Assembly: GCA_030390025.1 (NCBI GenBank)
Contig: CM059432.1
Location: 40,116,001 to 40,180,000, forward strand
Length of the DNA stretch: 64,000 bases
Source of the DNA: Squalus acanthias
Taxonomy: Eukaryota
Reading direction: 5' to 3'
Shown here: positions 10,346 to 48,800 of the stretch, in pieces
Position numbering within the stretch: the stretch's first letter is position 1
Layout: the number at the start of each line of letters is the position of its first letter
The notes under the pieces: generated by a model
Told to the model about the DNA's origin: nothing
The model's database searches: none
The model's input: the letters and a program-made list of their open reading frames with translations, nothing else
Program-made: the position numbers and the translations under genes

Positions 10346-12630
10346 TGAAGAATCATATAATACAGCAGAGAAGGAGGTCATTAGGCCTATCGAGTCTGCG
10401 CCGGCTCTTTCGAAGAGCAATCCAGTTAGTCTTATTCCCCCGCTCTTTCCCCATATCCCTGCAATTTTTCGCCAAGTATTTATCCAATTCCCTTTTTGAA
10501 GGCTAGTATTGAATTTGTATTCACCACCCTATCGGGCAGTGCATTCCAAATCCTAACCACTCGTGTGAAAAAAAAGTTTTTCCTCATGTCACCTCTGGTT
10601 CTTTTGCCAATTACTTTAAATCTGTGCCCTCTTGTTATTGATCCTTCAGCCATTAAAAAAACTTTCTCTTTATTTACTTTATCTAAAACCTTCATGATTT
10701 TAAACACCTCTATCAAATCTCCTCTTAGCCTTCTCTGCTCTAAGGCGAACAATCCCAGCTTCTATCCACGTAACTGTAATCGCTCATTCCTGGAACTATT
10801 CTATTAAATCTCTTTTGTACCCTCTCCAAAGCCTTCATGTCCTTCCTAAAGTGTGATGCCCATAACTGGACACAATACTCCAGCTGGGGCCGAACTAGTG
10901 TTTTATATAGGTTTAACATATCTTCCTGACTTTTGTCCTCTGTCTTTTTACGAAGACCAGGATCCCATAAGCTTTATTAACTGCTTTGTTAACCTGTCTT
11001 GCCACCTTCAAAGATTTGTGCACAAACGCCCCCCCCCCTCTCTGTTCTTGCAAGCCCTTTAAAATTGTACCATTTAGCTTGTATTGTCTCTCCTCATTCT
11101 TCCTACCAAAATGTATCGCCTCACACTTTTCCGCGTTGAATTTCATCTGCCATGTGTCCGCCCATCTCACCAGCCTGTCTAAGTCCTCTTGAGGTCTATT
11201 ACTATCTTCCTCACTATTTGCTACACTTCTAATTTTGAAATTATGCCCTATATACCCCAAGTCCAAGTCATTAATGTATATCAAAAACAGCAGTGGTCCT
11301 AGTACTGAACCCTGGGGAATGCCACTGTACACCTTCCTCCAGTCCAAAAAAACAGCTGTCCACCACAACTGTTTTCTATCCCTTAGCGAATTTTATATCC
11401 ATGCTGCTACTGCCCCCTTTATCCCATGGGCTTCAATTTTGCTAACGAGCCTAATACATGGTACTTTTTCAAATGCCTTTTGAAAATCCATATACATAAC
11501 ATCAACTGCACTGCCTTCTGTTACCTCATCACAAACTCAATCAAGTTAGTCAAGCATGATTTGCCCTTAACAAATCCTTTTAGTCCATGCTAGTCCAAGT
11601 GGCTGTTAATTTTCTCCTGGATTATTGTTTCCACCACCGACGTTATACTGACTGCCTTGTAATTGCCTTCTCCCCTTGTAATTGCCTTCTCCCCTGTTTT
11701 GAATATGTGTAACATTTGCAATCCTCCAGTCCTCTGGCACCACCCCTGTATCTAAGGAGAATTGGAAGATTGTGGCCAGCACCTCTGCCATTTCTACCCT
11801 TGCTTCCCTCAGCAACCTAGGATGCATCCCATCCGGACCGGGTGACTTATCCACTTTAAGTACTGCCAGCCTTTCTAGTACCTCCTTGTATCCTTTTCAA
11901 TTATCTCTGCACTCTCTGTATTCTGCCTGGTTTTCGATTGTATTCTGTATCTGACATTAGGCATAAACTTCCCTTTTCTGTTTTATTCTAACATCTATTT
12001 CTTTTGTCATCCAAAGAGCTCTAGCTTTGGATGGCCCATCTTTCCTCTTTATGGGAATATGCTTGGTTTGTACCCAAACTATCTCCGCCTTGAAGGCCTG
12101 CCATTGCTCATTTACTGTTGTCCTGGCCAATCTCCCTTCTCAAATCACTGGAATTAGCTCTCTTCCAGTTGGGTATTTTCACCTTTGATTTTTCTTTGTC
12201 CCTTTCCATAACTACTTTAAACCTAATGATATGTTCACTATTACCCAGATGTTCTCCCACTGAAACGCACTCCACTTGCCCTACTTCATTCCTCAGAACT
12301 AGATCCAGCACTGCTTCATTCATCCAAAAGCAAAGTACTGCGGATGCTGGAAATCTGAAATAAAAACAGAAAATGCTGGAAATGCTCAGCAGGTCAGGCA
12401 GCATCTGTGGAGAGAGAAACAGAGTTAACGTTTCAGGTCGAAGGGTCATCGACCTGAAACGTTAACTCTGTTTCTCTCTCCACAGATGCTTCCTGACCTG
12501 CTTCATTCATCGTTGGGCTAGAAACATTGATTAATTAAGAATGTTCTCCTGTACACATTTTAGGAATTCTTCACCCTCCTTGCCCTTTACTCTGTTTTCC
12601 CCCAGTCTATATTAGGGTAATTGAGGCCCT
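10346..12630 (-). mobile_element. Decayed CR1 LINE (end of EN domain to 3' end), interrupted by a PLE mini-insertion
   Basis: ORFs 10913-11368 ([18 protein letters not shown]), 11606-11854, 12108-12449 (EAVLDLVL). Confidence 0.87.
12325..12497. mobile_element. PLE family B fold-back mini-insertion
   Basis: Perfect 14-bp TSD ctgcttcattcatc (12311-12324 / 12498-12511); terminal repeat followed by its inverted partial copy, with the junction in the hammerhead motif. Confidence 0.88.
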
Positions 12631-14142
12631 ACTATTACTGCTATTATGAGCTATAGTAACATTAATGGTTCATTTTTAGCTTAATTTTTACTTTGTATGT
12701 CAGGGTAAGAACCTGGATGAAAATAACAGCTCATAATCTCCTAGAAAAAATGAGCATTTTACTTAGGAAATAGATTGCCCATGGCGTTGTGTGCATATGG
12801 AGAACAAATTTTCTCATCCATTGTGGGATGGTAATTTTCTTTTATAATCTTAAATAATTACAGAAATTTATAATCCCTTAGTATCAAAGTGCGCCTTGAA
12901 AAATACTGGTTTTAACAGGACAATTATGTATGTTTCAATATTGATGATGTACCTTTTGCCCAAGCCTAATGTGTATTCAGCTTTGGACTGCTTGGTTATA
13001 TTGTTCACCTTTCCACCCTCCTTCCACTCCTAGTCAAGCAGTCAGCAAGCTGATCTGCCCCAGGACATGGCTAGTACCGGCTTCTGTTTTGGGTGCAAGA
13101 ATTATGCGAACTCCAGGGTGATTCATCAGCCAGTGTTTCTCTTTTGCTTCTTGCAAGAAAGAGACTGATGTCTTTTCAGCTACTCCCTCTGACTGTGGTT
13201 TGAGATCAAAAGAGCAAACCTGGATTCTGTTGAAGCACTACAATATCACCCCTCACGACAGATGTGATTTCATTTTGAATACTGGGAAGTTAATTTAAGT
13301 GGAGTAGAATTTGTTGAGTTTGATCTGGGATTAGATTCTGAAGTCAATTTGCAGCTAAGTTGTGGAATCTATGAAAGCTTTACTAAAATGGAGTCATTTT
13401 TTATGTGATCCAACTTGAGAAAAGTTGATCAATTAGGTGATTGAAATGTTGGAATCGAGACAAATAATCTTGAAGCTAATTATCAAATTAATATAGGAAT
13501 AATATTTCAGAATCAGTATGTTGACAATAGTTTAATTTGCCCAAAATACCCCTTTGTTGAATATCATTAATATTGAAATTTTAATATTAATGTCAAATAC
13601 AAAACTATACCTTGAAATGCATTATTTTTAAAATGAACTTTAAAGTGGAGTAGCACTCCAGCTGTATTACAAGACCGACATTTCCCCAGTAGCAGTCTGA
13701 AATTGACTGCATGTTACCTTTCAGCCACATGATTCCATTTCCCAGGCAGCATGTGGTACAGTTAACAGCAGTGATAGGCTCTCATTTGTCATATTTCAAC
13801 TGACTTGCAGGTAGGGCTGCCTGTAGTAGATTAATTCCCAATTGTAAAAATGCACTATTTATCTATGATTAGATGTCTAGCATCTATGGCATCCATTGTG
13901 CCTCCATGTCACAGATGCAAAGTATATGTAACATTTGCACATGATTGGTTTGAATATCATATTCACAAACAGTAACAACATTTTGTATCACAAATGGTAC
14001 TAAATCAAAATTGAAGTCTTCGGCTTCTTTTAAAAAAAAATAGATTTGTCATTGTTTGCTGACCTTGATGACATATCCTCTTAATGGGAGAAGCTGGGAT
14101 TTACAAGGAGCTGCTAATCTAGAGACAAACTATCCTAAGCTG

Positions 14143-14597
14143 TGTGTCAGCTATGGCTCAGTGAGTAGCACCCTCGCCTGCATTAGAAGGTTGTGGCTTC
14201 AAGTCCCACTCCAGAGACTTGAGCACAAAAATCTAGGCTGACACTCCAGTGCAGTTCTGAGGAAGTACTGCACTGTTGGAGGTGCTGTCTGTCGGATGTG
14301 ACGTTAAACCGGGGCCCTGTCTGCTCTCTCAGGTAGACGTAAAAGATCCTATGGCACTATTCGAAGAAGAGCAGGGGAGTTATCCCCGGTGTCCTGGTCA
14401 ATATTTATCCCTCAATCAACAGTTTATCTGGTCATTATCATATTGCTGTTTGTGGGAGCTTGCTGTGTGCAAATTGGCTGCCGCGTTTCCTACATTACAA
14501 CAGTGACTACACTTCAAAACGTACTTCATTGGGTGTATAGCGATTTGGGACATCTGGTGGTCGTGAAAGGCGCTATAGAAATGCAAGTCTTTCTTCG
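14143..14597 (+). mobile_element. tRNA-derived Deu-domain SINE (SacSINE1/AmnSINE-related) with L2-type tail
   Basis: A box tggctcagtg and B-box-like ttcaagtcc; Deu core gtaaaagatcctatggcactattcgaagaagagcaggggag; tail aaggcgctatagaaatgcaagtctttctt. Confidence 0.82.
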
Positions 14598-16623
14598 TTA
14601 AGCAAATATGTCTACTTCCCCCCAACCCCCATCCCACAGAGTACACGGTGACCTTAGAAACAGGCTATGTTAAACATAGCTCTGCTTTAGCAGCAGATAG
14701 CTTTATTAAAGTTAAACCCTTTACACCTATTTGGAAAAGCTATCAAGATATAAACACTCCCTCACTATTATAAAATACATTTTGCCAGCAGTTCATTACA
14801 CTTCCACTTGCCCACAGACATTCTATGGGATTTTGCACTGGAACTTACTGTAAATCAAAAAGCCAAAACGACACTGCACCCTCTGCAGGAGATCTGGGAC
14901 CTGTGTGAATAAGGCAAGCAACTATGTATCTCCTTGACCAATCAGATTGAAGAATCGTTAATGACCAGCAAACCAGGAAGTGTCAGTTAGAATATTTAAT
15001 TCAATGTCAAATCAGGTACAGAAAGCAAAATAGAGGGAAAGAAAGATGGGAATAAGAGAGAAAAATTTACATTTTTTAATTTAAAAAAAAAATCTCAAAC
15101 AATAATTAAAATCTGAAGGAATAAGACTCCACACTTGTAAATATTAATGTTTAGTGCCAGAGAGGTTATTTGGCTATAATTAAGACTTAACTCACCATTA
15201 AAAATTTGCTTATACTAGAATGGACAAGCCCTAACTTTTTAAAATGGTTACAGCATAGAAGGAGGCCATTCAGCCTGTCGAACATACATACGAATTAGGA
15301 GCAGGAGTAGGCCACTCGGCCCTTCGAGCCTGCTCCGCCATTCAATAAGATCATGGCTAATCCGATTACTCCACGTTCCCGCCTACCCCCGATAACTTTT
15401 CACCCCCTTGCTTACCAAGAATCTATCTACCTCTGCCTTAAAAATATTCAAAGACTCTGCTTCCACCGCCCTCTGAGGAAGAGAGTTCCAAAGACTCACG
15501 ACCCTCTGTGAGAAAAAATTTCTCCTCATCTCTGTCTTAAATGGGCGACCCCTTATTTTTAAACAGTGACCCCTAGTTCTAGATTCTCCCACAAGAGGAA
15601 GCATCCTCTCCACATCCACCCTGTCCAGACCCCTCAGGATCTTATATGTTTCAATCAAGTCACCTCTTATTTTTCTAAACTCCAGCGGATACAAGCCTAG
15701 CCTGTCCAACCTTTCCTCATAAGACAACCTGCCCATTCCAGGTATTAGTCTAGTAAACCTTCTCTGAACTGCTTCCAACGCATTTACATCCTTCCTTAAA
15801 TAAGGAGACCAATACTGTACACAGTACTCCAGATGTGGTCTCACCAATGCCCTGTAAACTGAAGCATAACCTCCCTACTTTTGTATTCAATTCCCCTCTC
15901 AATAAACGATAACATTCTATTAGCTTTCCTAATTACTTGCTGTACCTGCATAGTAACCTTTTGCGATTCATGCACTAGGACACCCAGATCCCTCTGCATC
16001 TCAGAGCTCTGCAATCTCTCACCATTTAGATAATATGCTTCTTTTTTATTCTTCCTGCCAAAATGGACAACTTCACATTTTCCCACATTATACTCCATTT
16101 GCCAGATCTTTGCCCACTCACTTAAGTTATCTATATCCCTTTGTAGCCTTCTTATGTCCTCTTCACAATTTACTTTCCTACCTATCTTTGTGTCATCAGC
16201 AAATTTAGCAACCATACCTTCGGTCCCTTCATCCAAGTCATTTATATAAATTGTAAAAAGTTGAGGCCCCAGCACTGATCCCTGTGGCACACCACTCGTT
16301 ACATCTTGCCAATCAGAAAATGACCCATTTATGCCTACTCTCTGTTTCCTGTTAGCTAGCCAATCTTCTATCCATGCCAATATGTTACCCCCTACACCGT
16401 GAGCTTTTATTTTCCGCAATAACCTTTTATGTGGCACCTTATCAAATGCCTTCTGGAAATCTAAGTACAGTACATCCACCGATTCCCCTTTATCCACAGC
16501 ACATGTTACTTCCTCAAAGAACTCCAATAAATTGTGATGTGGAGATGCCGGCGTTGGACTGGGGTGGACAAAAATGAGAAGTCGCACAACACCAGGTTAT
16601 AGTCCAACAGATTTATTTAAAAT

Positions 16624-16659
16624 TACAAGCTTTCGGAGCTGTCGCTCCTTCTTCAGGTA
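16624..16659 (-). ncRNA. Minimal type I hammerhead ribozyme motif (3' pLTR of PLE-A)
   Basis: Minus strand UAC-CUGAAGA-A-GGAGC-gaca-GCUCC-GAAAG-CUU-GUA: catalytic boxes, 5-bp stem II, palindromic AAGCUU helix III, stem I UAC/GUA. Confidence 0.8.
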
Positions 16660-16889
16660 GGGTAGCTGTGAGAGAATCTCCCAGAATTCACAATATAAAC
16701 ACAGAAAAAATGTATTCAAATCTTTCCCTACATCAAAGACACACTAAGAGCACAGCCAAGACAATGAGATGTGTCCCAGGGGGTCCAACGTGTCAAAACA
16801 CCTGCTGGCCGTATATCCTCTCCATTTGGGTTTGGTTCTTGTGTTAGTTTTTTAAAAAAAAACCTGGAAAGACCGGCCATGATGTCAAG

Positions 16890-19568
16890 TCACGTTCTGT
16901 ATCGTGACATGAACCTGATATCGCGATTGAGGCCATCCTCATGAGTGCGGAACTTGGCTATCAGTTTCTGCTCTATGATTTTGCGCTGTCGTGTATCCCG
17001 AAGGCCGCCTTGGAGAACGCTTACCCGCAGATCCGAGGCTAAATGCCCCTGACTGCTGAAGTGTTCCCCGACTGGGAGGCAACCCTCCTGCCTGGCGATT
17101 GTTGCGCGGTGTCCGTTCATACGTTGTCTCAGTGTCTGCATGGTCTCGCCGATGTACCATGCTCTGGGGCATCCTTTACTGCAACGTATCAGGTAGACAA
17201 CGTTGGCCGAGTCACATGAGTATGTACCATGTACCTGGTGGGTAGTGTCCTCACGTGTGATGATGGTATCTGTGTCCATGATCTGGCATGTCTTGCAGAG
17301 GTTGCCGTGGCAGGGTTGTGTGGTGTCGTGGTTGCTGTTCTCCTGAAAGATGGGTAATCTGCTGCGAACGATGGTACTTTTGAGGTTAGGCGGCTGCTTG
17401 AAGGCGAGTAGTGGAGGCGTGGGGATGGCCTTAGCAAGGTGTTCGTCGTCATCGATGACATGTTGAAGGCTGCGAAGAACATGGCGTAGTTTTTCCGCTC
17501 CGGGGAAGTACTGGACGACGTAGGGTACTCTGTTGGTTGTGTCCCGTGTTCGTCTTCTGAGGAGGTCTATGCGGTTTTTCGCTGTGGCCCGTCGGAACTG
17601 TCGATTGACGAGTCGAGCGTCATATCCCGTTCTTACGAGGGCGTCTTTCAGTGTCCGTAGGTGTCCATCGCGTTCCTCCTTGTCTGAGCAGATCCTGTGT
17701 ATTCGCAGGGCTTGTCCATAGGGGATGGCTTCTTTAACGTGGTTAGGGTGGAAGCTGGAGAAGTGGAGCATCGTGAGGTTGTCCGTGGGCTTGCGGTAGA
17801 GTGAAGTGCTGAGGCGTCCGTCTTTGATGGAGATTCGTGTGTCCAAGAATGAAACCGATTCTGAGGAGTAGTCCATGGTGAGTTTGATGGTGGGATGGAA
17901 CCTGTTGATGCTATCGTGTAGTCCTTTCAGTGATCCTTCGCCGTGGGTCCAAAGGAAGAAGATGTCGTCGATGTATCTGGTGTACAGCGTTGGTTGGAGG
18001 TCCTGTGCAGCGAAGAAGTCTTGCTCGAACTTGTGCATGAAGATGTTGGCGTATTGGGGTGCGAATTTGGTCCCCATGGCTGTTCCGTGTGTTTGGGTAA
18101 AAAAATGGTTGTCGAAGGTGAAGACATTGTGGTCAAGGATGAAGCGGATGAGTTGTAGGATGGCGTCCGGAGATTGGCTGTTGTTGGTGTTGAGTACTGA
18201 GGCTGTCGCAGCGATGCCGTCATTGTGGGGGATATTGGTGTAGAGTGCCGATACGTCCATCGTGACGAGGAGTGTTCCTGGTTCAACTGGTCCATGGGTG
18301 CTGAGTTTCTGCAAGAAGTCTGTAGTGTCGCGACAGAAGCTGGGGGTTCCCTGTACGATGGGTTTCAGGATGCCCTCGACGTACCCAGAGAGGTTCTCAC
18401 ACAGGGTTCCGTTGCCTGATACGATAGGACGTCCGGGTGTGTTGGCTTTGTGTATCTTTGGGAGGCAGTAAAAGTCTCCTACGCGGGGAGTACGTGGGAT
18501 GCGAGCGCGTAGGATGTTTTGAAGGTCTGGATCGAAGGTCTTGATCAGTCTATTGAGTTGGCGGGTGTGTTCTTTGGTCGGATCTGCGGGTAGCTGTCTG
18601 TAGTGTTCCTGGTTGTCCAGTTGTCGGTATGCTTCTTTGCAATAGTCCATTCTGTTCTGTATGACGATGGCTCCTCCTTTGTCCGCTGGTTTGATGACGA
18701 TGTTGCGGTTGGTCTTGAGAGCGTGGATGGCGTTGCGTTGTGCTCGGGTGACATTCTGGACTGTCTTGTGAGTACGGCTGATGAATCTGGCGTTGATGCA
18801 TTTCCTGACAGCTTGAGCATACATGTCAAGCTTAGGGCTGCGACCCTCCGGAGGGGTCCAATTTGACTCTTTCTTCCTCGGTTGTAGCACTGCGGTTCCC
18901 TCTGTCTGCTGTTCCGGATCATTGATTGTCCCATTAGGAATGTTGCTGACATCTTGGGATTTGTGGTAGTATTCCCGGATCCTCATTCTCCTGATGAATT
19001 CCTCTGTGTCCGCCGCGAGACCGATGGGGTCCATTTTGGTGGTGGGGCAGAACTTGAGCCCTAGGGCGAGAACTTCGATTTCGTCTGGTTGAAGGGTGTG
19101 GTCCGACAGGTTGACGATGGACTTCCCTGTGGTTGCAACCGTGGTACCGGGGGAGGCTTGGTTGCAGCTGGTGGTTACGCCGAGTTTCTCAAGCTTCCTG
19201 TTCTTGATGCGCATGTAGGCAGCGTAGTTCCGTTGCCTCGTCTGTTTGGCGGTGTCTCGTAGCTGGTCTGCTGTGTCCTGAGCACAGGCTGAGAGCATGG
19301 ACTCTATCTTGGTTTCGAGGTTGCGACGTCTGCTGTAGAGCTGGTGTACGAGATGGTTGAGGAGTGTGCGAGAGGTACGACGGCAAAGTCTCTCAGCGTA
19401 GTCTGTGTTGTATGTCGACTTGAGTGGGTTCGTGATCTGTAGTCCTTTCGGAATCTTGTCTGCTTTCTTGCATCTCTGCAGGTACTTGATGTCTGTGTCA
19501 ATATGCGCGATCTTCTTGGCGATTCTCTCCACTTTGAGCCGGCAGTTTGCGGTGTCAATAGAGGTCAT
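16890..19568 (-). CDS. PLE polyprotein: reverse transcriptase + Cys-rich linker + GIY-YIG endonuclease (892 aa from first ATG)
   Basis: Uninterrupted ORF; motifs ADKGG, LPKIHK, GRPIVS, DVSALYT, GTAMG, RYIDDIF, FLD, LYRKPT; CxxxxCxxC linker; VVYLIRC..YIGET..R..GH..GLN. Confidence 0.95.
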   Translation of the reverse strand: MTSIDTANCRLKVERIAKKIAHIDTDIKYLQRCKKADKIPKGLQITNPLKSTYNTDYAERLCRRTSRTLLNHLVHQLYSRRRNLETKIESMLSACAQDTADQLRDTAKQTRQRNYAAYMRIKNRKLEKLGVTTSCNQASPGTTVATTGKSIVNLSDHTLQPDEIEVLALGLKFCPTTKMDPIGLAADTEEFIRRMRIREYYHKSQDVSNIPNGTINDPEQQTEGTAVLQPRKKESNWTPPEGRSPKLDMYAQAVRKCINARFISRTHKTVQNVTRAQRNAIHALKTNRNIVIKPADKGGAIVIQNRMDYCKEAYRQLDNQEHYRQLPADPTKEHTRQLNRLIKTFDPDLQNILRARIPRTPRVGDFYCLPKIHKANTPGRPIVSGNGTLCENLSGYVEGILKPIVQGTPSFCRDTTDFLQKLSTHGPVEPGTLLVTMDVSALYTNIPHNDGIAATASVLNTNNSQSPDAILQLIRFILDHNVFTFDNHFFTQTHGTAMGTKFAPQYANIFMHKFEQDFFAAQDLQPTLYTRYIDDIFFLWTHGEGSLKGLHDSINRFHPTIKLTMDYSSESVSFLDTRISIKDGRLSTSLYRKPTDNLTMLHFSSFHPNHVKEAIPYGQALRIHRICSDKEERDGHLRTLKDALVRTGYDARLVNRQFRRATAKNRIDLLRRRTRDTTNRVPYVVQYFPGAEKLRHVLRSLQHVIDDDEHLAKAIPTPPLLAFKQPPNLKSTIVRSRLPIFQENSNHDTTQPCHGNLCKTCQIMDTDTIITREDTTHQVHGTYSCDSANVVYLIRCSKGCPRAWYIGETMQTLRQRMNGHRATIARQEGCLPVGEHFSSQGHLASDLRVSVLQGGLRDTRQRKIIEQKLIAKFRTHEDGLNRDIRFMSRYRT

Positions 19569-19656
19569 GATGTGGAGATGCCGGCGTTGGACTGGGGTGG
19601 ACAAAAATGAGAAGTCGCACAACACCAGGTTATAGTCCAACAGATTTATTTAAAAT

Positions 19657-19692
19657 TACAAGCTTTCGGAGCTGTCGCTCCTTCTTCAGGTA
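19657..19692 (-). ncRNA. Minimal type I hammerhead ribozyme motif (5' pLTR of PLE-A)
   Basis: Identical to 16624-16659; ~90 nt upstream of the ATG. Confidence 0.8.
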
Positions 19693-21600: not shown

Positions 21601-22346
21601 AAACCAAGCAATAGGGTTTATTTCTGGAGGGATAGAATTGAAAAGTAGTGAAGCTAAACTTGTATCGAACCTTGGTTAGACGTCACTTGGACTACTGCGT
21701 ACAAAGGCATCAAGGGGTATGGGGAGAGCGCGGGAATATGGTATTGAGATAGAGGATCAGCCATGATCATATTGAATGGCGGAGCAGGCTCGAAGGGCCG
21801 AATGGCCTACTCCTGCTCCTATTTTTCTATGTTTCTAATTCTGGTCGCCATATTATGAAAAGGATATAGAGGCACTGGAGAGGATGCAGAGAAGATTTAC
21901 AAGGATGATACCAGAAATGCGAGAGTATACCTATCAGGAAAGGATGAACAGGCTGGGTCTCTTTTCTCTTGAAAAGAGAAGGCTGAGTGGTGACCTAATA
22001 GAGGTCTTTAAAATTATGAAAGGCTTTGATAGAGTAGACGCAACGAGAGTGTTTCCACTTGTGGGGAAAAGCATAACTAAAGGCCATCAATATAAGATAG
22101 TCACCAAGAGATTAAATAGGGAATTCAGAAGGAACTTCTTTACTCAGGAGAGTGGTGAGAATGTGGAACTCGCTACCACAGGGAGTGGTTGAAGCAAATA
22201 GTATAGATGCATTTAAGGGAAGCTAGATAAGCATATGAGGGAGAAGGGAATAGAGGGTCATGCTGATAGTTAGATGAGGAAAGACGGGAGGAGACTCGAG
22301 TGGAGCATAAACGCCGGCATGGACTAGTTGGGCCGAATGGCCTGTT
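21601..22346 (+). mobile_element. CR1 3' fragment containing a second CR1-tail insertion (~21704-21837)
   Basis: ORF 21884-22192 (QRRFTRMIP, GDLIEVFK); tails gggccgaatggcct at ~21795 and ~22330. Confidence 0.82.
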
Positions 22347-24485: not shown

Positions 24486-24744
24486 TTGTTTTATATATAC
24501 CATTAGTGTAGCTCAATAGAGAAACACTTATCAGGAAAACAGAATCGGTCATTGAATCTCAGTCACTATTCTATTTTGCTTGCATTGCAGGTCCAATATG
24601 GTGTGTCACACCACCCAATCTATCACCTCAATACCCGAGCTGATTTGCCTATTCTGTCTGGCAGTGACTGCCACCTGTGAAAATGGTTTAGATAATGTAG
24701 TGCAACACCCTCGAGCTTCGATGTTCTATGTCACTTTGGAATAG

Positions 24745-35926: not shown

Positions 35927-36082
35927 GACTTCAGCTGGTGTTCTTTGCCACCTGCTCCATTCTCTCTTCATTGCAGCCTTTTGGTATTTCTTCTGTTGAT
36001 TGAAATCAGCAGCAGAAAATATTCCAACAAGCCAGCATTGAAGAGAGAATGGAGCAGGTGGCAGAGAACACCAGCTGAAGTC
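35927..36082. repeat. Inverted repeat/hairpin with 44-bp arms
   Basis: 35927-35970 is the reverse complement of 36039-36082 with one mismatch. Confidence 0.85.
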
Positions 36083-36669
36083 GAGGAACAAAGAATTGGA
36101 TAAGGCTGCTTCTTCATTGGTCATAAAAAGCTGTGTGTTGAGCATTTAAGCACGTAAATAGAAAATGACTTTGAGGGCCAAGTAACCAGAGTTTGTGAGC
36201 CATAGTTTAAGCACCCAGATCTGGAGGATCTGATCAAACCTTCAATTCTGCATCGCTGCCAAGCCCTTAGTCCCTTTTAATCCTTATTGCCCTTTTTTTT
36301 TAATACAATTTTTTAATAGATTGCAATTGTATAAAAAATATTTCTATCATCTAATAGCATGCAAAATTATTAAATTAGATATTTGAATCACAGCATTCTA
36401 AGCCTTAATTCCTGATTATCCATCCCTCAATTTTTTTAAGACTATTCATAATCCATGAAATTTGACCAAAATCCCATGATGAATGTACAGCCCTAGTATA
36501 CTCCATGTACCATGGCAATTAATCTACCTGGCAAACTTTATCAGATCTGCCCAGATTAAAATGAAGCCTAGATTCCATAATGAAAAAGATAACGATCAAG
36601 TGATATCCCAGGCCTTTGCTATTTTGAAATCTTGCATTGCATGCTGGAGTGACCTAGACTAACTCGTCC

Positions 36670-38109
36670 AATACAATAGCAAAATACTGCGGATGCTGGA
36701 AATCCGAAATAACAACAGAAAACGCTGGAAAAACTCAGCAGGCCAGGCAGCATCCGTGGAGAGAGAAACAGAGTTAACGTTTCAGGTCGAAGACCTTTCG
36801 TCAGAACTGGAAAAAAGCAGGAAATGGAATAGATTTTAAAGCAAGTTTAGAGGCTGGGAAGGGGATGAAAGAACAAAAGGGAAGGTCAGTGATAGGATAG
36901 AAAGCAGGAGAGATTAAGAGACATTGAGCGATATTCAAGGCAAGAGGAGGTGGTAATGGGACAGGTTAAGGAACAAAGGATGGCTCTAGATGAAGTGTGA
37001 ATTGCGCTGGCAGAATGAAGGACAGCTGCCATGTGGGAGGGAAGGAAAAAAGGCCAAACAAAAAGTGTGGATAAAAAAAATATATAAATATATATATATA
37101 TGTGATGGGGGCCGAGGTTATGATCTGAAATTGTTGAACTCTATGTTGAGTCCAGAGGGCTGTAGAGTGCCGAATCGAAAGATGAGTTGCTGTTCCTCGA
37201 GCTTACGCTGAGCTTCCGTGGAACAATGCAAGAGGCTGAGGACGGTGAAGTCTGAGTGGGAATGGAGCGGTGAATTAAAGTGACAGGCCACCGGGAGCTC
37301 GGGGTCCCCCTTACGGACTGAACGGAGGTGTTCTGCAAAGCGGTCACCCAATCTGCGTTTGGGGCCCCAAACATCCCTTCCAGGTGAAACAGCGATTTAC
37401 TTGTACTTCTTGCAATTTAGTATACTGTATTCGCTGCTCACGATGTGGTCTCCTCTACATTGGGGAGACCAAACGCAGATTGGGTGACCGCTTTGCAGAA
37501 CACGTCCGTTCAGTCCGTAAGGGGGACCCCGAGCTCCCGGTGGCCTGTCACTTTAAATCACCGCTCCATTCCCACTCGGACCTCACCGTCCTCGGCCTCT
37601 TGCATTGTTCCACGGAAGCTCAGTGTAAGCTCGAGGAACAGCAACACATCTTTCAATTAGGCACTCTACAGCCCTCTGGACTCAACATAGAGTTCAACAA
37701 TTTCAGATCATAACCTTGGCCCCTATCTCTCTCTCTCTTTTTATCCACACTTTTTGTTTGGCCTTTTTTCCTTCCCTCCCACATGGCAACTGTCCTTCAT
37801 TCTGCCAGCGCAATTCACACTTCATCTAGAGCCATCCTTTGTTCCTTAACCTGTCCCATTACCACCTCCTCTTGCCTTGAATATCTCTCAATGTCTCTTA
37901 ATCTCTCCTGCTTTCTATCCTATCACTGACCTTCCCTTTTGTTCTTTCATCCCCTCCCCCCTTTTCCCAGCCTCTAAACTTGCTTTAAAATCTATTCCAT
38001 TTCCTGCTTTTTTTCCAGTTCTGACGAAAGGTCTTCGACCTGAAACGTTAACTCTGTTTCTCTCTCCACGGATGCTGCCTGACCTGCTGAGTTTTTCCAG
38101 CGTTTTCTG
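36670..38109. mobile_element. PLE family B, 5'-truncated with inverted duplication (~645-bp arms)
   Basis: 15-bp TSD tagactaactcgtcc (36655-36669 / 38110-38124); GIY-YIG ORF 37384-37713 (LVYCIRC..YIGETKRRLGDRFAEH..GLN) and its inverted copy 37118-37351. Confidence 0.93.
38017..38053 (+). ncRNA. Minimal hammerhead ribozyme motif of PLE-B (inverted twin at ~36772-36808)
   Basis: AGUU-CUGACGA-A-AGGUC-uuc-GACCU-GAAAC-GUU-AACU: cores, stem II, palindromic AACGUU helix III, stem I AGUU/AACU. Confidence 0.78.
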
Positions 38110-38222
38110 TAGACTAACTCGTCCTTTGATATTCCTGTTCCTGGTAATTCATAGTGTAAAATGGATAATCTAATAAGAGCGATTTGGTTTGAATTAACAG
38201 AAGTAAAAAAATTGCATTACAG

Positions 38223-38351
38223 GCTGAATCTCTGGGAGGTTGCAGAATTTTTAAAGGGCCATGGAATTATTAATGCCATTAATTTGGATGGAGGGGGATC
38301 AGCTACCCTGGCACTCAATGGATCTCTTGCAAACTATCCATCAGATCACTG
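38223..38351 (+). CDS. NAGPA: NAGPA coding exon with the NLDGGGS motif
   Basis: ttacag| ... |gtatgt; LNLWEVAEFLKGHGIINAINLDGGGSATLALNGSLANYPSDH(C); 129 nt, phase 2 to 2. Confidence 0.96.
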
Positions 38352-40357
38352 GTATGTACGCTGCGAAGTATACAAAGTTGTGTACTACTTGAAATTCTGT
38401 TATGTTGCTCATGGACAAAATAGTTTGGAGTAATTTCGTTCATATTTGTCTTTCAGTAGATTTACCTGCCCATGGGACAGCCTGAAATTACTAAAATTTG
38501 CCTCCACACTGATCACTGAATTCATGTTTTTTTTAAAAGTAAATGCCTGCATTGTAGAAGACAGAAGTAATAAGGGTGTCTGACACATCAGAAATAATTA
38601 ATTTTCTGGTGCTGTATCTCTTTGAAATCTGTTAAAATTCACTCGGGAGTTCTGCTCGCATAACACACAAATAGGTGGGCATTAAAAATTCACCCATGAT
38701 TAAACAAATAAATGCCTGCAGTGGAAAAGTTACATCAATAAAGTGTCCTATCCAAATGACAAATAAATAAGCAATTTGCTGAAGTTCCTGTTTTTATTTA
38801 TAATTTGATGAATCTAATCTATGCATGCAACATCCTAAAATGGCTCTACGATGTGTTTTATTTAGAAATCTGAACAGTTAGGTTCTGCTGGCATAACAAA
38901 TAGCTGGATATTAAAATTCATGCAGCGTTTATAAAAAAAAAAATTAAAGCCTGTACTGGGAATATAATACGTCAGAGAAAAAAATATGCTGGTGCTGTTT
39001 AGTTTCTTTAGTTTCTCTCCTATCTCCCCTCATGTCCTCTCCGAGCTCATCTTGTCCATGAGACGCACCTCCTGCTCCCTTGATCCTATTCTCACCTAGC
39101 TGCTGACCACACAACTACCCTTCCTAGCCCTCATGTTAGCTGATATAGAAACATAGAAGATAGGAGCAGGAGTAGGCCATTCGGCCCCTTGAGCCTGCTC
39201 CGCCATTCAATGCGATCATGGCTGATCATCCAAATTCAGTACCCTGTCCCCGCTTTCTCCCCATATCCCTTGATCCCTTTAGCCTTAAGAAATATATCTA
39301 ACTCCTTCTTGAATATATTTAATGAATTGGCCTCAACTGCCTTCTGTGGTAGAGAATTCCACAGGTTCACCACTCTCTGGGTGAAGAAATTCCTCCTCAT
39401 CTCAGTCCTAAATGGCCTACCCCTGATCCTTAGACTGTGACCCCTGGTTCTGGACTCCCCCGCCATCGGGAACATCCTTCCTGCATCTAGTCTGTCTAGT
39501 CCTGTTAGAATTTTATAAGTTTCAATGAGATCCCCTCTCATTCTTCTAAACTCTAGCGAATACAAGCCCAATCGACCCAATCTCTCTTCATACGTCATTC
39601 CTGCCATCCCAGGTATCAGTCTGGTGAATCTTTGCTAAACTCCCTCCATGGCAAGAACATCCTTCCTCAGATAAGGTGACCAAAACTGCACACAATACTC
39701 AAGGTGTGGTCTCACCAAGGCCCTGTACAACTGCAGCAAGACATCCTTGCTCCTGTACTCGAATCCTCTCGCTATGAAGGCCAACATACCATTTGCCGCC
39801 TTAACCGCCTGCTGCACCTGCATGCTTACCTTCAGCGACTGGTGCACAAGGACACCCAGGTCTCATTGCACTTCCCCTTTTCCCAATCTATTGCCGTTCA
39901 GATAATAATCTGCCTTCCTGTTTTTGACACCAAAGTGGATAACCTCGCATTTATCCACATTGGGCAGATGCAGTACAATCACCCAACCTGTCCAAATCAT
40001 ACTGGAGTTTCTCTGCATCCTACTCACAGCACACACGCCCACCCAGCTTTGTGTCATCTGCAAACTTGGAGATATTGGCCCAAAAATTAGTGTCTCTACG
40101 CGAGAGTACACACTGTGTACTCTCGCATATTCTGTCTCCAATTGCCGGTTTTCTGCATGCACTGCGCATGCGCTGAAAACCGGCACTTGGTGATTTCAAA
40201 AGGGGGCAGTTCCTAGGTGAACCGCGTGCGCGCTAAAGGCTGCGCACACGCAGTGCACTTAGTGCTTTGAACGCGCAGGTAAGCATGGAAGATTTTGCAC
40301 ATAAAGAAAGGAGGCGTAAGACCCTCTTTTAACAAGGTAAGTAGTTAATTAAGTATT

Positions 40358-41107
40358 GGCCCAGAAATTGATCTCGCTCTGTTCCCGCGGGGGTAAGGAG
40401 CAGGCGCGATCTCTCACTCCGCGTTGGCTTTTTCAGATCCAGCTCGCACGAACTTGATGTTCTAGACATCAGCTGGGCAGTGCTTGCGTATCCCACCGGC
40501 GTAGTGAATTCGTGCGAGCTGTGGGATCACGTGACTCAGTTAGAGCCAATGGCAGCACACCATCTTCCATTCATAAGTTTCACATACGTGCTGTGAAAGC
40601 TATGAATCTTACACACCCCCAAAATAACAGCTAAACCTCAATTAAATTAAAAAAAAAACCCATCACATTAATAAAATAAGTATAGTTAAATAAATTAACC
40701 ATTTTAAATAAAAAATAACATTTTGAAAAAATTTAAAATCTTTTAAAAAGTTATAAAAAATAAACTTACCTGTCTTTAAATTCTGTAAAAAAAAAAGATA
40801 TACCTGTTAAAAAAAAAATTCAAAATAATACTTAATTCACTACTTACCTTGTTAAAAGTGGGTCTTACTCCTCCTTTTTTCGTTTCTAAAATCTTCCGTC
40901 CTTACCTGCGCGTCCAAAGCATTAAGTGCACAGCGTGCGCGCAGCCTGTAGCGCGCACGCGGTGCACCGAGGAACCGCCCCCTTTTCCAAAGACCAAGTG
41001 CCGGTTTTCAGCGCATGCGCAGTGCATGCAGAAAACCAGCAATTGGAGAGAGAATACGCGAGAGTACGCAGTGCGTACTCTCGCGCAGCGGGATCAATTT
41101 TTGGCCC
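40358..41107. mobile_element. Harbinger-type MITE, inner copy of the same family in opposite orientation
   Basis: TIRs ggcccagaaattga / tcaatttttggccc; TSD ATT (40355-57 / 41108-10); colinear reverse complement of the outer copy. Confidence 0.88.
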
Positions 41108-41265
41108 ATTATTTTGAATTTTTTTCAACAGGTATATCTTTTTTAGAGACTTTAAAGAAAGGTAAGTTTATTTTTATAACTTTTTAAAAGATTTTAAATT
41201 TTTTCAAAAATTTAATTTTTTGTTTAAAGTGGTTAATTTATTTAACTATACTTATTTTATTAATG

Positions 41266-43741
41266 GCTCCTTCCTCAGGTAGGTTAGCAGTGAGAGAATC
41301 TCCCAGAATTCACAATTTAAACACAGACAAAATCTATTCAAATCTTTCCCTACATCAAAGACACACTAAGAGCACAGCCAAGACAATGAGATGTGTCCCA
41401 GGGGGTCCAACGTGTCAAACCACCTGCTGGCTGCATATCCTGTCAATTTGTGTTGGTTCTTGTGTTAGTCTGTTTAAAAAAAAAACAAACACCTGGGAAG
41501 ACCGGCCATGATGTCAAGTCACGTTCTGTATCGTGACATGAACCCGATATCGCGATTGAGGCCATCCTCATGAGTGCGGAACTTGGCTATCAGTTTCTGC
41601 TCTATGATTTTGCGCTGTCGTGTATCCCGAAGGCCGCCTTGGAGAACGCTTACCCGCAGATCCGAGGCTGAATGCCCCTGGCTGCTGAAGTGTTCCCCGA
41701 CTGGGAGGCAACCCTCCTGCCTGGCGATTGTTGCGCGGTGTCCGTTCATACGTTGTCTCAGTGTCTGCATGGTCTCGCCGATGTACCATGCTCTGGAGCA
41801 TCCTTTACTGCAACGTATCAGGTAGACAACGTTGGCCGAGTCACATGAGTATGTACCGTGTACCTGGTGGATAGTGTCCTCACGTGTGATGATGGTATCT
41901 GTGTCCATGATTTGGCATGTCTTGCAGAGGTTGCCGTGGCAGGGTTGTGTGGTGTCGTGGTTGCTGTTCTCCTGAAAGATGGGTAATCTGCTGCGAACGA
42001 TGGTACTTTTGAGGTTAGGCGGCTGCTTGAAGGCGAGTAGTGGAGGCGTGGGGATGGCCTTAGCAAGGTGTTCGTCGTCATCGATGACATGTTGAAGGCT
42101 GCGAAGAACATGGCGTAGTTTTTCCGCTCCGGGGAAGTACTGGACGACGTAGGGTACTCTGTTGGTTGTGTCCCGTGTTCGTCTTCTGAGGAGGTCTATG
42201 CAGTTTTTCGCTGTGGCCCGTCGGAACTGTCGATCGACGAGTCGAGCGTCATATCCCGTTCTTACGAGGGCGTCTTTCAGTGTCCGTAGGTGTCCATCGC
42301 GTTCCTCCTTGTCTGAGCAGATCCTGTGTATTCGCAGGGCTTGTCCATAGGGGATGGCTTCTTTAACGTGGTTAGGGTGGAAGCTGGAGAAGTGGAGCAT
42401 CGTGAGGTTGTCCGTGGGCTTGCGGTAGAGTGAAGTGCTGAGGCGTCCGTCTTTGATGGAGATTCGTGTGTCCAAGAATGAAACCGATTCTGAGGAGTAG
42501 TCCATGGTGAGTTTGATGGTGGGATGGAACCTGTTGATGCTATCGTGTAGTCCTTTCAGTGATCCTTCGCCGTGGGTCCAAAGGAAGAAGATGTCGTCGA
42601 TGTATCTGGTGTACAGCGTTGGTTGGAGGTCCTGTGCAGCGAAGAAGTCTTGCTCGAACTTGTGCATGAAGATGTTGGCGTATTGGGGTGCGAATTTGGT
42701 CCCCATGGCTGTTCCGTGTGTTTGGGTAAAAAAATGGTTGTCGAAGGTGAAGACATTGTGGTCAAGGATGAAGCGGATGAGTTGTAGGATGGCGTCCGGA
42801 GATTGGCTGTTGTTGGTGTTGAGTACTGAGGCTGTCGCAGCGATGCCGTCATTGTGGGGGATATTGGTGTAGAGTGCCGATACGTCCATCGTGACGAGGA
42901 GTGTTCCTGGTTCAACTGGTCCATGGGTGCTGAGTTTCTGCAAGAAGTCTGTAGTGTCGCGACAGAAGCTGGGGGTTCCCTGTACGATGGGTTTCAGGAT
43001 GCCCTCGACGTACCCAGAGAGGTTCTCACACAGGGTTCCGTTGCCTGATACGATAGGACGTCCGGGTGTGTTGGCTTTGTGTATCTTTGGGAGGCAGTAA
43101 AAGTCTCCTACACGGGGAGTACGTGGGATGCGAGCGCGTAGGATGTTTTGAAGGTCTGGATCGAAGGTCTTGATCAGTCTATTGAGTTGGCGGGTGTGTT
43201 CTTTGGTCGGATCTGCGGGTAGCTGTCTGTAGTGTTCCTGGTTGTCCAGTTGTCGGTATGCTTCTTTGCAATAGTCCATTCTGTTCTGTATGACGATGGC
43301 TCCTCCTTTGTCCGCTGGTTTGATGACGATGTTGCGGTTGGTCTTGAGAGCGTGGATGGCGTTGCGTTGTGCTCGGGTGACATTCTGGACTGTCTTGTGA
43401 GTACGGCTGATGAATCTGGCGTTGATGCATTTCCTGACAGCTTGAGCATACATGTCAAGCTTAGGGCTGCGACCCTCCGGAGGGGTCCAATTTGACTCTT
43501 TCTTCCTCGGTTGTAGCACTGCGGTTCCCTCTGTCTGCTGTTCCGGATCATTGATTGTCCCATTAGGAATGTTGCTGACATCTTGGGATTTGTGGTAGTA
43601 TTCCCGGATCCTCATTCTCCTGATGAATTCCTCTGTGTCCGCCACGAGACCGATGGGGTCCATTTTGGTGGTGGGGCAGAACTTGAGCCCTAGGGCGAGA
43701 ACTTCGATTTCGTCTGGTTGAAGGGTGTGGTCCGACAGGTT
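41266..43741 (-). mobile_element. PLE family A, second copy, 5'-truncated (open 714-aa RT/GIY-YIG frame at 41519-43663)
   Basis: 15-bp TSD cttattttattaatg (41251-41265 / 43742-43756); about 7 aa differences from the 16890-19568 ORF over 714 aa. Confidence 0.95.
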
Positions 43742-45835
43742 CTTATTTTATTAATGTGATGGGGTTTTTTTTTAATTTAATTGAGGTTTAGCTGTTCTTT
43801 TGAGGGGGTATAGATTCATAGCTTTCACAGCACTTGCTGTGAAAACTATGAATGAAAGATGGTGTGCTGCCATTGGCTCTAACTGAATCACGTGATCCCA
43901 CAGCTCGCACGAATTAACTGCGCCTGTGGGATACGGAAGCACTGCACAGCTGCTGTCTAGAAAATCAAGTTCGTGCGAGCTCGGAATGAAAAGGCAGGCG
44001 CGCAGTGAGATATCGCGGGGAAGCCTTACCCCCGCACGAAGGCTCCGTCATTAATTTCTGGGCCATTACATCTAGTTCCCTCGTCTAGATCATTAATATA
44101 TATTGTGAATAACTGGGGTCCTAGCACCGATCCCTGCGGTACCCCACTAGTCACTGCCTGCCACTCGGAAAAAGACCCATTTATTCCAACTCTTTGCTTC
44201 CTGTCTGCCAACCAGTTCTCTATCCAAGTCAGTACCTTACCCCCAATCCCATGTGCTTTAACTTTGCATGCTAATCTCTTATGCGGGACCTTATCGAAAG
44301 CCTTCTGAAAGTCCAAATACACCACATCCACTGGTTCTCCCTTATCTATTCTACCAGTTACATCCTCAAAAATTTCCAGTAGATTAGTCAAGCATGATTT
44401 ACCTTTTGTAAATCCATGTTGACTTTGTCCGATCCTGTCACTGTTTTCCAAGTGCTCTGCTATTACATCTTTTATAATGGACTCTAGCATCTTCCCCACT
44501 ACCGATGTCAGGCTTACTGGTCTATAATTCCCCGTTTTCTCTCTACCACCTTTTTTAAATAGTGGGGTTACATTAGCTACCCTCCAATCCATGGAGACTG
44601 TTCCAGAGTCTATAGAATTTTGGAAGATGACCAGCAATGCATCTACTATTTCTCGGGCCACTTCCTTAAGTTCCCTAGGATGTAGATTATCAGGCCCTGG
44701 GGATTTATCGGCCTTCAATCCCGTCAATTTCCCTAACACCATTTTCCTACAAATACTGATTTCATTCAGTTCCTCCCTCTCATTAGACCCTATGTTCCCC
44801 GACATCTCTGGGAGGTTATTTGTGTCCTCCTTTGTGAAGACAGAACCAAAGTATGTATTTAATTGGTCAGCCATTTCTTTGTTCCCCATTATAAATTCTC
44901 CTGATTCTGACTGCAAGGGACCTACGCTTGACTTCACCAATCTTTTTCTCTTCACATAGCTATAGAAGCTTTTACAGTCAGTTTTTATGTTCCCTGAAAG
45001 CTTACTCTCATATTCTATTTCCCCCCTCTTAATTAATCCCTTTGTCCTCCTTTGCTGAATCCTAAACTGCTCCCAATCCTCAGGTTTGCTGCTTTTTCTG
45101 GCCAATTTATATGTCCTCTCCTTGGATCTTATGCTATCCTAATTTCCCTTGTTAGCCACGGTTGAGTCACCTTTTTTGTTTTATTTTTATGCCATTTATA
45201 TTGTTAACCATTCCCTCTCCTCGGGTAATGTCACACTCCCCTTCAAATCTGCCGTCATCTGCTTATAAAACCCACCCTTGACCCCTCTGTTCTTGCAAAC
45301 TACTATCCCATCTCCAACCTCACTTCCTCTCAAAGTCCTTGAACGTGCTGTCGCCTCCTAAATCCGTACCCATCTTTCCCCAAGCTCCATGTTTGAATCC
45401 CTCGAATCTGGTTTCCGCCCCCGCCACAATACTAAAACGGCCCTTATCAAAGTCACAAATTACATCCTATGTGACTGCGACCGTGGTAAACTATCCCTCC
45501 TCATCCTTCTCTACCTGTCTGCAGCCTTTGACATGGTTGACGACACTATCCTCCTCCAACACCTCTACTCCATCGCCCAGCTGGGTAGGACTGCCCTCGC
45601 CTGGGTCCATTCTTATCTATCCAGTCATCAATGGCTTCTCCTCGCTCCCGCACCATTCTGTCTGGAGTCCCCCAAGGATCTATCCTTGGCCCCCTCCTAT
45701 TTCTCATCTACATGCTGCCCCTTGGCGACATCATCCGAAAACACGTCAGTTTCCAAATGTACGCTGACGACATCCAGCTCCACCCAGCCATTGTGTTCGA
45801 TCCCCACCACAAATTCCATTCCCTAGCCACCGACA

Positions 45836-48800
45836 TCATAGAGTCATAATCATAACGGCACAGAAGGTGGCCATTCGGCCCATCGAGTCTGTGCTGGCTC
45901 TCTGTAGAGCGATCCAGTCAGTCCCATTCCCCCGCTCTATCCCCGTAGCCCTGCAAGTTTATTTCCCTCAAGTGCCTATCCAGTCTCCTCTTGAAAACAT
46001 TGAGTGTGGCCGCTTCCACCACTTCCGTCGGCAGCGAGTCCAGATCCTCACCACTCGCTGCGTAAAAAAGTTTTTCCTCACGTCTCCCCTGTATCTCTTG
46101 CCCAAAACCTTAAATCTGTGTCCCCTAGTCCTTGTACCATCAACTAGTGAGAACAGCCTTTCCCCGTCTAGCCTATCCAACCCGTCATAATCTTGTACAC
46201 CTCTATCAAATCAACCCTCAACCTCCTTTGCTCTAATGAAAACAAATCCAGCTTCTCCAACCTGCCCTTATAGCTAAGATCCCCCATCCTGGAACCATTC
46301 TGGTAAATCTCCTCTGCACCCTCTCAAGGGCCTTCACATCCTTCCTAAAGTGTGGTGACCAGAACTGAACGCAATACTCCAGCTGTGGCCTAACCAGGGC
46401 TTTATAAAGGTTTAGCATAACTTCTCTACTTTTGTACTCAATACCTCTATTTATGAAGCCCAAGATCCCATATGCTTTGCTAACCACTCTCTCAATATGT
46501 CCTGCCACCTTCAGGGACCTATGCACATTAACTCCCAGGTCCCTCTGTCCCTGCACACTCTTTAAAACTGTGCCATTAAGTGTCTATTGCCTCTCCCTGT
46601 TCCTTCTGCCAAAATGCATTATCTCACACTTCCCTGTATTAAATTCCATCTGCCACTTGTCTGCCCATTCTGCTAGCCTTTCTATGCCCTGTTGCAGTCG
46701 ATTGGTTTCATCCTCACTGTTTGCCACACTCCCAAGTTTGGTGTCATCGGCAATTTAGAAATTCTACTCTGTATTCCAATATCCAGGTCATTTATTTATA
46801 TTTTTTTATATATATATATATATATATCAACAAAGGCTGTAGCTCCAGCACTGACCGTTGGGGAACACCACTGTCTACCATCCTCCAGTCTGAAAAACAG
46901 CCAGTTACCACAACTCGCTGTTTTCTGTCCTTATCCAAGCTGCCGCTGACCCACCTATTTGACGAGCCTCAATTTTGTTAACCAGCCTTCTGTGTGGTAC
47001 TTTGTCAAACGCCTTCTGAAAATCCATGTAGACAACATCCACTGCATTCCCTTCATCAATCCTCTCTGTTACTTCATCAAAAAATTCAATTAGATTAGTC
47101 AAACACGATCTGCCTTTAACAAATCCGTGTTGGCTCTCCTTAATTAGCTTAAACCTCTCCAAGTGCCCGTTAATTTTTTCCTTGATTATTTCTAAAACTT
47201 TACCCACCACTGATGTTAAACTGACCGGCCTGTAGTTACTAGGATTGTCCTTGCACCCTTTCTTGAACAATGGTGTCACATTTACCACTTTCCAATCCTC
47301 GGGCACCTCCCCCACATCTAGGGAAGATTGGAAAATGATGGCAAGCCCTTCCGCTATCTTCTCCCCCAATTCCCTTAGCAACCTAGGATGCAGGCCATCT
47401 GGACCAGGCGACTTGTCCACTCTAAGCATACCCAGCCTTTCTCGTACATCCTGTATCAATTTTCACCCCTTCCATTAATTCTACCTTTTCCACTTCTACC
47501 GATAGTTTGTCAGCATCCACCTCCTTAGTAAACACCGATACAAAGTACTCATTGAGTATTCTAGCCTTGCCCTGCGCCTCTAAGCATATATCACCTTCTT
47601 TGTCCCCAATAGGCCCCACCCCGCCTCTTGCTACCCACTTACTGTTTACATGCCGGTAGAAGATTTTTGGGTTCCCTTTTATGTTAATCGCCAATCTACT
47701 CTCATATACTCTCTTTGCCAATCTTATTTTCATCTTCACATCACCTCTCAACTTATTGTATTTGGTCTGGCTCTCCCTTGAAGAATTCACCTGACATTCA
47801 TCTTACACCCTCTTTTTTTGTTTCATCATCTTCTCTATCTCCCTCGTCATCCAAGGAGCCCTTGCTTTGGTCTCTTACCCTTCCCTCTTGTTGGAATGTA
47901 CCTAGCCTGTACTTGGAACATCTCCTCCTTAAAGATCATCCATTGTTCCGTTACAGTTTTCCCTGTCAGTCTTTGATTCCATTTTACCCTGGCTAGATCC
48001 TTTTGCATCCCATTGAAGTTAGCCCTATTCCAGTTTAGAAGTTCCACTCTAGCTTGTTCCTTGCTCCTCTCCATTGCTAATCTAAATCTTATGATATGAT
48101 GATCACTGGTATCAAGTGTTCTCCCACAGACACTTGTTCGACCTGGCCCACCTCATTCCCCAGCACAAGATCCAGCAATGCCTCCTTCCTACAAAAGCAA
48201 AATACTGCGGATGCTGGAAATCTGAAATAAAAACAGAAAATGCTGGAAATACTCAGCAGGTCAGGCAGCATCTGTGGAGAGAGAAACAGAGTTAACGTTT
48301 CAGGTCGATGACCCTTCGTCAGACCTGCTGAGTATTTCCAGCATTTTCTGTTTTTATGCCTCCTTCCTAGTTGGATCAAGAACATATTGGTCAAGGAACT
48401 TCTCCTGACACATTTCAGAAATTCCTCCCCCTCCTTTCCCTTTACCCTAGCATTATCCCAATCGATATTTGGGTAATTAAAGTCCCCCAATATCACCCCT
48501 CTATAGTTCTTGCATATCTCTGCGATTTCCCTGCAGATTTGCTCCTCTACCTCCCACTCACTATTTGGAGGCCTGTAGAATACCCCCAATAGCGTGATCA
48601 TACCCTTTTTGCTCCTCAACTCTAACCAAATGGATTCTGTCCTTGTCCCCTCAAAAACATCCTTCCTTTCTAACACTACAATGTCTTCCTTAATCAGCAT
48701 TGCCACCCCACCTCCCTTTTTTCCTTCCCTATCTTTTCTGAACACCTTGTACCATTGAATATAAAGTGCCCAGTCCTCACCGTTTTTAAGCCACGTTTCC

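Follow-up and report, generated by a model that had tools for sequence, protein, structure and literature searches.

Two short copies of a Penelope-like element (PLE) are inserted at the same base of two different copies of a CR1-type long interspersed nuclear element (LINE) in a 64,000-nt stretch of the Squalus acanthias genome (assembly GCA_030390025.1, contig CM059432.1, positions 40,116,001 to 40,180,000, forward strand), referred to here as the window. We think it quite probable that these are real, independent insertions at a strong hot spot and that the hot spot is made by a general, symmetric target preference of the PLE. The site is the strongest of several single-base PLE hot spots in CR1, and a two-fold symmetric motif on both of its halves is the likely reason.

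Two PLE insertions at one base of two CR1 copies

The two sites and their hosts have the following layout, in positions of the window (TSD, target-site duplication; RT, reverse transcriptase).

12311..12324, plus strand: first copy of the TSD at site 1, a perfect 14-mer
12325..12497, minus strand: PLE mini-insertion 1, 173 bp, made of the tailed 3' end (element positions 1-114) and an inverted piece (129-64)
12498..12511, plus strand: second copy of the TSD at site 1, a perfect 14-mer
48178..48191, plus strand: first copy of the TSD at site 2, a perfect 14-mer
48192..48355, minus strand: PLE mini-insertion 2, 164 bp, made of the tailed 3' end (1-138) and an inverted piece (71-36)
48356..48369, plus strand: second copy of the TSD at site 2, a perfect 14-mer
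11406..12622 (minimum extent), minus strand: CR1-type LINE fragment, host 1, with the 5' part of the RT and the APE endonuclease, delimited by blastn against the other CR1 copies of the window and about 70% identical to host 2
45845..48766, continuing to about 48885, minus strand: CR1-type LINE, host 2, with 92% identity to a copy 28.3 kb downstream, beyond the window

An earlier note on this DNA had described both inserts as lying at the same base of their hosts, in the same orientation and between perfect 14-bp TSDs, and this was confirmed. In both hosts AGATCCAGCA stands before and GTTGG after the duplicated target, and the TSD sequence itself differs by host. What the note quoted as the head is the reverse complement of the PLE 3' end, so both the PLE and its CR1 host lie on the minus strand. 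The fold-back junctions differ as well (1-114 plus inverted 129-64 at site 1, 1-138 plus inverted 71-36 at site 2), and the inverted piece of mini-insertion 2 ends at the second start site of the element. When the empty sites were reconstructed they agreed at 52 of 74 nt, and longer host flanks were about 70% identical. The view that the insertions are independent and not one inherited chimera therefore stands, on the host-specific TSDs and the different junctions. Mini-insertion 2 had zero differences from the column majority over 130 nt, as was the case for 4 of 104 copies, and judged by this match it is young.

The CR1 site is a genome-wide hot spot for PLE insertion

The 3.71-Gb genome contains 25,701 exact PLE ends of the two main variants (17,727 and 7,974), which are the more than 25,700 ends counted here, and 6,678 empty sites that read AGATCCAGCA-N14-STTGG. 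A total of 49 loci were filled at the CR1 site. Distinct junctions were found at 47 of them, in both orientations and in several CR1 subfamilies; this call rests on retrieved DNA, with several loci judged from one end only. The non-independent loci are one conversion copy, described below, and one segmental duplicate. The latter duplication (contig C1252, loci L425 and L426) is at least 10 kb long with 98-99% identity, its copies are 176 kb apart and each holds a filled hot spot.

The filled loci were reached by several searches. A degenerate anchor with the PLE head within 4-30 nt gave 33 matches, 14 of them in the CR1 site and 12 of those 14 at +14; the two off-register matches (+7 and +10) had their second junction at 0 or +1. 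All 3 matches of the mirror search, which looked for the opposite orientation, fell at the reciprocal nick. Searching for the second, tail-less junction returned 22 matches, 17 of them new, and further scans added 15. As read from the junction sequences, these insertions show the use of two fixed nick positions, 14 nt apart, in either orientation. Host flanks of the filled loci had 46-97% mutual identity (16 compared) and both PLE variants were represented. Given 25,701 ends and 6,678 empty sites, 0.023 insertions would be expected with the strict anchor, and 11 were found (Poisson p ~2e-26). Enrichment at the CR1 site was about 260- to 480-fold, which together with the number of distinct filled loci bears out the proposal of the earlier note that the PLE has a preferred site within CR1. 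About 0.02 pairs of strict-anchor insertions as close as the two in the window, only 36 kb apart, are expected per genome, and we put this closeness down to the selection of the window or to some unknown local factor.

Insertion along CR1 was compared using two matched scans, each covering 400 nt after an anchor (9,921 and 9,615 copies), with the first 30 loci of each mapped and the remainder taken from listings. The comparison somewhat favours the site, because the first anchor stands nearer to it than the second anchor does to most clusters of the second scan. In the scan that contains the site, 26 of 60 matches fell on it (25 without the segmental duplicate). The second scan yielded clusters of 8, 6, 6, 5, 3, 2 and 2 among 43 matches, several in both orientations. 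The CR1 site was the strongest of the 800 positions scanned, and compared to a mean of 0.096 per position elsewhere it was enriched about 260-fold. Insertion points are strongly clumped and not uniform along CR1, and because this clumping is general the site is best described as the strongest of several hot spots. The existence of 6,678 empty sites also means that no CR1 subfamily carries the insert in its consensus. Head-anchored scans gave 16 matches off the site with at most 2 per place; the second-junction scans, which are more sensitive, gave the several hot spots.

Of the counted PLE ends the CR1 site accounts for about 0.2%, and the filled share of the sites is about 0.25%. On contig C1, 218 PLE ends were collected unselected, in the order of the genome, and one of them was at the CR1 site (L261, the same locus as L211). 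The suggestion of a retroelement targeting another retroelement is not sustained by these shares. It is also at odds with the other CR1 hot spots (8, 6, 6 and 5 insertions, against 25) and with the same symmetric motif in 98 unselected insertions, described below.

Counted from the site, further PLE hot spots lie at -973, -749, -1090, -1074 and -907 (L397-L423), within the RT part of this CR1 family; each holds 3-8 insertions, and several are used in both orientations. Pairs of PLE insertions at the same base were also seen at other CR1 positions (L070 with L079, and L243 with L247). Two scans had a forward-strand lean (13 v 2 and 13 v 3) and three others had none; the lean is perhaps due to chance.

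Unselected insertions share a symmetric target motif

Target geometry was measured in the 98 of the 218 unselected ends that had a TSD of at least 10 bp, after one tandem and one hot-spot copy had been set aside. TSDs of these 98 insertions were most often 14 bp long. On the 3' side of the first nick the flank has T at +2 to +4 and G at +5, and the flank beyond the second nick mirrors it; this mirror symmetry was best at a spacing of 14 (r = 0.72), followed by 15 (0.53), with all other spacings at or below 0.34. A YTG core 1-2 nt past the nick was present on the right in 36, on the left in 34 and on both halves in 18 of the 98, as compared to 7, 12 and 1 in controls. The top half-site 4-mers were TTGG (20 v 4 in controls) and GTTG (20 v 2), which make up the right half of the CR1 site. 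The last TSD base was G in only 6 of 98. Both halves of the CR1 site contain YTG, and its score places it among the best 0.5-3% of CR1 positions. Weight matrices built with and without shift-fitting both ranked it high and under-predicted its strength.

Several observations weigh against a general motif as the full account of the hot spot. The weight matrices predict only 7- to 15-fold enrichment, against the 260- to 480-fold found. Equally high-scoring positions at -952, -60 and -237 had no insertion among the 50 mapped, and the second-ranked hot spots scored modestly (top 12-16%). The area under the curve was 0.67 for insertions away from the CR1 site, and a matrix that includes the core gave the sense orientation an average score. 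Neither the core nor the flanks of the CR1 site are rich in AT, whereas a preference for ATT was measured for the anole Poseidon protein (PMC11167929). In addition, microhomology blurs the TSD ends, and 120 of the 218 unselected ends had no usable TSD or were set aside. We take the motif to be real, and the model of it to be incomplete because the matrices under-predict, some positions of equal score hold no insertion and the lesser hot spots have modest scores.

Identity of the PLE and of its host

PLE copy L174 has an open frame of 532 aa with YIDD and GIY-YIG motifs, in which the RT is followed by a C-terminal GIY-YIG domain. Pfam matches to RVT_1 (E 0.0045) and GIY-YIG (E 0.009) were both below the curated cut-offs. 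Upstream of GIY-YIG, copies L166, L130 and L174 carry the linker CKRRRCNTC, which is of the CX2-5CxxC type. An inverted structure was present in 55 of the 98 TSD-bounded copies, and in most loci examined the second end stopped at element positions 32-41, giving a tail of 30-40 nt plus an inverted pseudo-LTR (LTR, long terminal repeat). A CX2-5CxxC linker before GIY-YIG, an inverted pseudo-LTR and a 30-40 bp tail are described for Neptune/Naiad PLEs in the excerpted text of Craig et al. (2021, PMC8557442). By its domain order, linker, pseudo-LTR and tail the element is, as far as its sequence tells, a Neptune-type PLE with an endonuclease (EN+).

A putative hammerhead core (CTGANGA...GAAA) is visible in the PLE sequence; an Rfam search of window positions 36500-52500 found no hammerhead match. 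Many unselected PLE copies stop at element positions ~130-140, where the CTGANGA of the putative hammerhead core lies, and some others stop at ~105. These stops are possibly reverse-transcription stops or RNA ends.

In the host family, the 727-aa frame of copy L058 has the APE endonuclease followed by the RT (Pfam Exo_endo_phos_2, E 4e-11; RVT_1, E 5e-24). The insertion site falls within the motif PTRKEALLDL of the APE endonuclease open reading frame. The host is called CR1 here after the label in the earlier note and after its motifs, and its placement in CR1 and not in L2 is provisional.

A two-nick model and its alternatives

In these insertions one end begins at the tail and the other often at element positions 32-41. 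Under the model that we favour, a symmetric and probably dimeric PLE protein would nick both strands 14 nt apart and leave 14-nt 3' overhangs. Each overhang would prime cDNA synthesis through microhomology of 0-2 nt; priming from one would be at the tail start, and from the other at the second start, which lies about 35 nt into the element. Joining of the two cDNAs would then produce the fold-back mini-insert, and trimming of the overhangs would produce the shorter TSDs. Such a course agrees with what the anole Poseidon protein does in vitro, described below, apart from that protein's preference for ATT (PMC11167929). The cuts at the CR1 site would presumably be made by the GIY-YIG domain. The conserved P-T and L-D codons of the APE motif PTRKEALLDL stand a fixed distance apart and may keep the dyad in many CR1 subfamilies, and because of these codons CR1 would be a passive, abundant carrier of a good target.

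Dedicated targeting of CR1 by something more than a general motif, for example a longer recognised sequence or pairing of the PLE RNA 3' end with the target flank, would suit the strength of the site, which is 3 times that of the next hot spot and 20- to 60-fold over the matrix prediction. The AGAT-TT-CCAGCA in the 3' end of the element also resembles the left flank AGATCCAGCA of the target. We nevertheless consider such targeting unlikely, as the site takes so few of the ends (~0.2%, and 1 of 218 unselected ones), only 0.25% of the sites are filled, and CR1 has other hot spots used in both orientations. A one-sided RNA match does not predict that the site itself is used in both orientations. 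A target-specific retrotransposon has most of its copies in one target, and here 49 of at least 25,701 ends are at the site.

It is less probable still that the break comes from another source, such as the CR1 endonuclease or a fragile or hairpin-forming site, and that the PLE merely fills it. In favour of such a source, the sequence of the site comes close to an inverted repeat (7 of 8 nt in host 2), and it is inside an endonuclease reading frame. However, the 14-nt stagger is also the PLE TSD mode and the symmetry spacing in unselected DNA. Flanks of single sites were no more complementary to each other than shuffled pairs (p 0.17-0.90), making a hairpin target unlikely, and a cruciform target was rejected on this result.

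Descent of the filled copies from one or a few events through CR1 retrotransposition, duplication or gene conversion does explain one conversion pair (site 2 and L219) and the segmental duplicate pair on C1252. As a general account it is very improbable, since all other examined loci differ in their junctions, the TSDs are host-specific, both orientations and two PLE subfamilies occur, and 6,678 sites are empty. An inherited chimera or a filled CR1 subfamily was rejected given the distinct junctions and the empty sites. Chance coincidence of two random insertions can be practically dismissed, even with more than 25,700 PLE ends and ~10,000 copies of this CR1 region in the genome, given the 11 strict-anchor insertions where 0.023 were expected.

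A copied insert 28 kb away and a possible homing-like route

A neighbouring CR1 copy (G000:C8 ~40,192,470; L219 / L230 ~2465-2710), 12 kb past the end of the window, carries an identical PLE insert. It lies 28.3 kb beyond site 2 in the same orientation and is 92% identical to host 2 over 2,950 bp, with unrelated flanks. The stretch shared without difference is the following.

48170..48405: gene-conversion tract of 237 bp that holds the insert, identical to the neighbouring CR1 copy

The tract runs from 8 nt left of the first TSD to about 36 nt right of the second, and the second-longest identical run between host 2 and the neighbour is 74 bp. Identity of the insert alone proves little because the insert is young. 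Derived host changes shared by the two copies number 4 in the 36 nt right of the insert, as compared to 5 in the ~1,250 nt outside, a stretch dense in private changes. Copying is therefore required to account for these changes and for the fold-back junction that the two copies have in common. Segmental duplication as the source of the filled neighbour was rejected, as the similarity ends at the CR1 ends. Gene conversion between repeats is a known process.

The tract is closely centred on the cut site (~2% of the shared length). Both this centring and the co-conversion on one side only, to the right of the first nick, agree with a break made by the PLE and repaired with the filled neighbour as template. 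It is possible, though on balance doubtful, that the PLE spreads by homing, with a staggered GIY-YIG break in an empty CR1 hot spot being repaired from a nearby filled copy (DNA or transcript). Each filled junction is without one half-site. Weighing against homing, this is one event in 49 loci and none was seen among the others; a tract without the insert would have escaped notice, and the copying may have run in either direction. Public contigs from three runs were too repetitive at the neighbouring copy to confirm the junctions, all three had a gap at 2680-2703 of L230, and they were used neither way; the reads do not speak against an assembly error there.

If the PLE's own cut did begin the conversion, a eukaryotic retroelement would have a route of spread that resembles homing. 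In addition to target-primed reverse transcription (TPRT), PLEs would in that case retain a mobility route of their homing-endonuclease relatives, and PLE integration would have a two-fold symmetric target like that of DNA transposons.

Comparison with known systems

To our knowledge the target choice and cutting of PLEs are poorly understood, with one full-length protein studied in vitro. GIY-YIG homing endonucleases such as I-TevI and I-BmoI have the same nuclease fold as the PLE endonuclease; they cleave a single long site, leaving 2-nt overhangs, and repair is their main means of spread. As with these enzymes, one empty neighbour here apparently gained the insert with short co-conversion and the filled allele loses its paired half-sites. 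Unlike them, 47 of the 49 loci here are separate TPRT events. Target-specific LINEs (R2 and the Tx1 clade) insert with base precision into a repeated target and have most of their copies in one target. The PLE shares the base-exact insertion, but only ~0.2% of its copies are at the site.

The protein of anole Poseidon (PAc, Anolis carolinensis) cuts and extends both strands in vitro and is a predicted dimer, according to the excerpted text of Frangieh et al. (2024, PMC11167929). Two reverse-transcription start sites define its tail, and it prefers ATT in AT-rich DNA (PMC11167929). The element described here resembles PAc in its canonical RT with GIY-YIG, and its junctions show the same two start sites (PMC11167929). 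It differs in its Neptune-type linker, 14-nt stagger and symmetric YTG-type flank motif; the main text on PAc, in the excerpt used, reports neither a fixed stagger nor a dyad (PMC11167929). For Neptune/Naiad PLEs the described target bias is toward microsatellites, and toward 28S rDNA for the EN-minus PLE-X; the part of that account used here has no dyad target or LINE hot spot (PMC8557442).

In human repeats, 82% of clustered insertion types are non-uniform and single-base hot spots are common (Levy, Schwartz and Ast, PMC2836564, excerpted text). For this reason the hot spot per se adds one more case to a known phenomenon. The human nested hot spots cover Alu, L1, LTR and DNA elements, and both-orientation use of a dyad there is by a DNA transposon, the hAT element MER1, which uses the same MIR3 hot spots in both orientations (PMC2836564). 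Unlike MER1, the element that uses one dyad site in both orientations here is a target-primed retroelement. In the literature covered, which is that outside subscription journals, we found no report of a dyad, 14-nt staggered PLE target, of a PLE hot spot in CR1 or of PLE homing.

The insertions in this genome support, from the in vivo side, a symmetric cut of both strands with a stagger of 14 nt and with priming at either end. The CR1 site is a natural substrate with both nick positions named, so that the dimer model can be tested directly. Where two insertions share one repeat base, common descent need not be the reason, a point of importance to repeat annotation and to the use of insertion markers.

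Other features of the window

The remaining PLE ends in the window (at 36670, 51339, 52035 and 8226) each have their own flanks, with TSDs of 15, 10 and 11 bp for the first three, and are at unrelated sites as the earlier note stated. The corresponding features, and an exon of the gene in whose introns the repeats lie, are as follows.

36670..38109: longer copy of this PLE, palindromic and of the CAATAGC variant, with a GIY-YIG coding piece, at an unrelated site with a 15-bp TSD
51209..51344, plus strand: PLE mini-insertion at an unrelated site with a 10-bp TSD
52028..52220, minus strand: PLE mini-insertion at an unrelated site with an 11-bp TSD
38200-38351, plus strand: exon of a NAGPA-family (phosphodiester glycosidase) gene, an intron-rich gene whose introns the window repeats occupy

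Two copies of a 2.5-kb repeat, at 16644-19112 and 41266-43741, are 24.6 kb apart and 98.6% identical, which reflects either a young family or local conversion.

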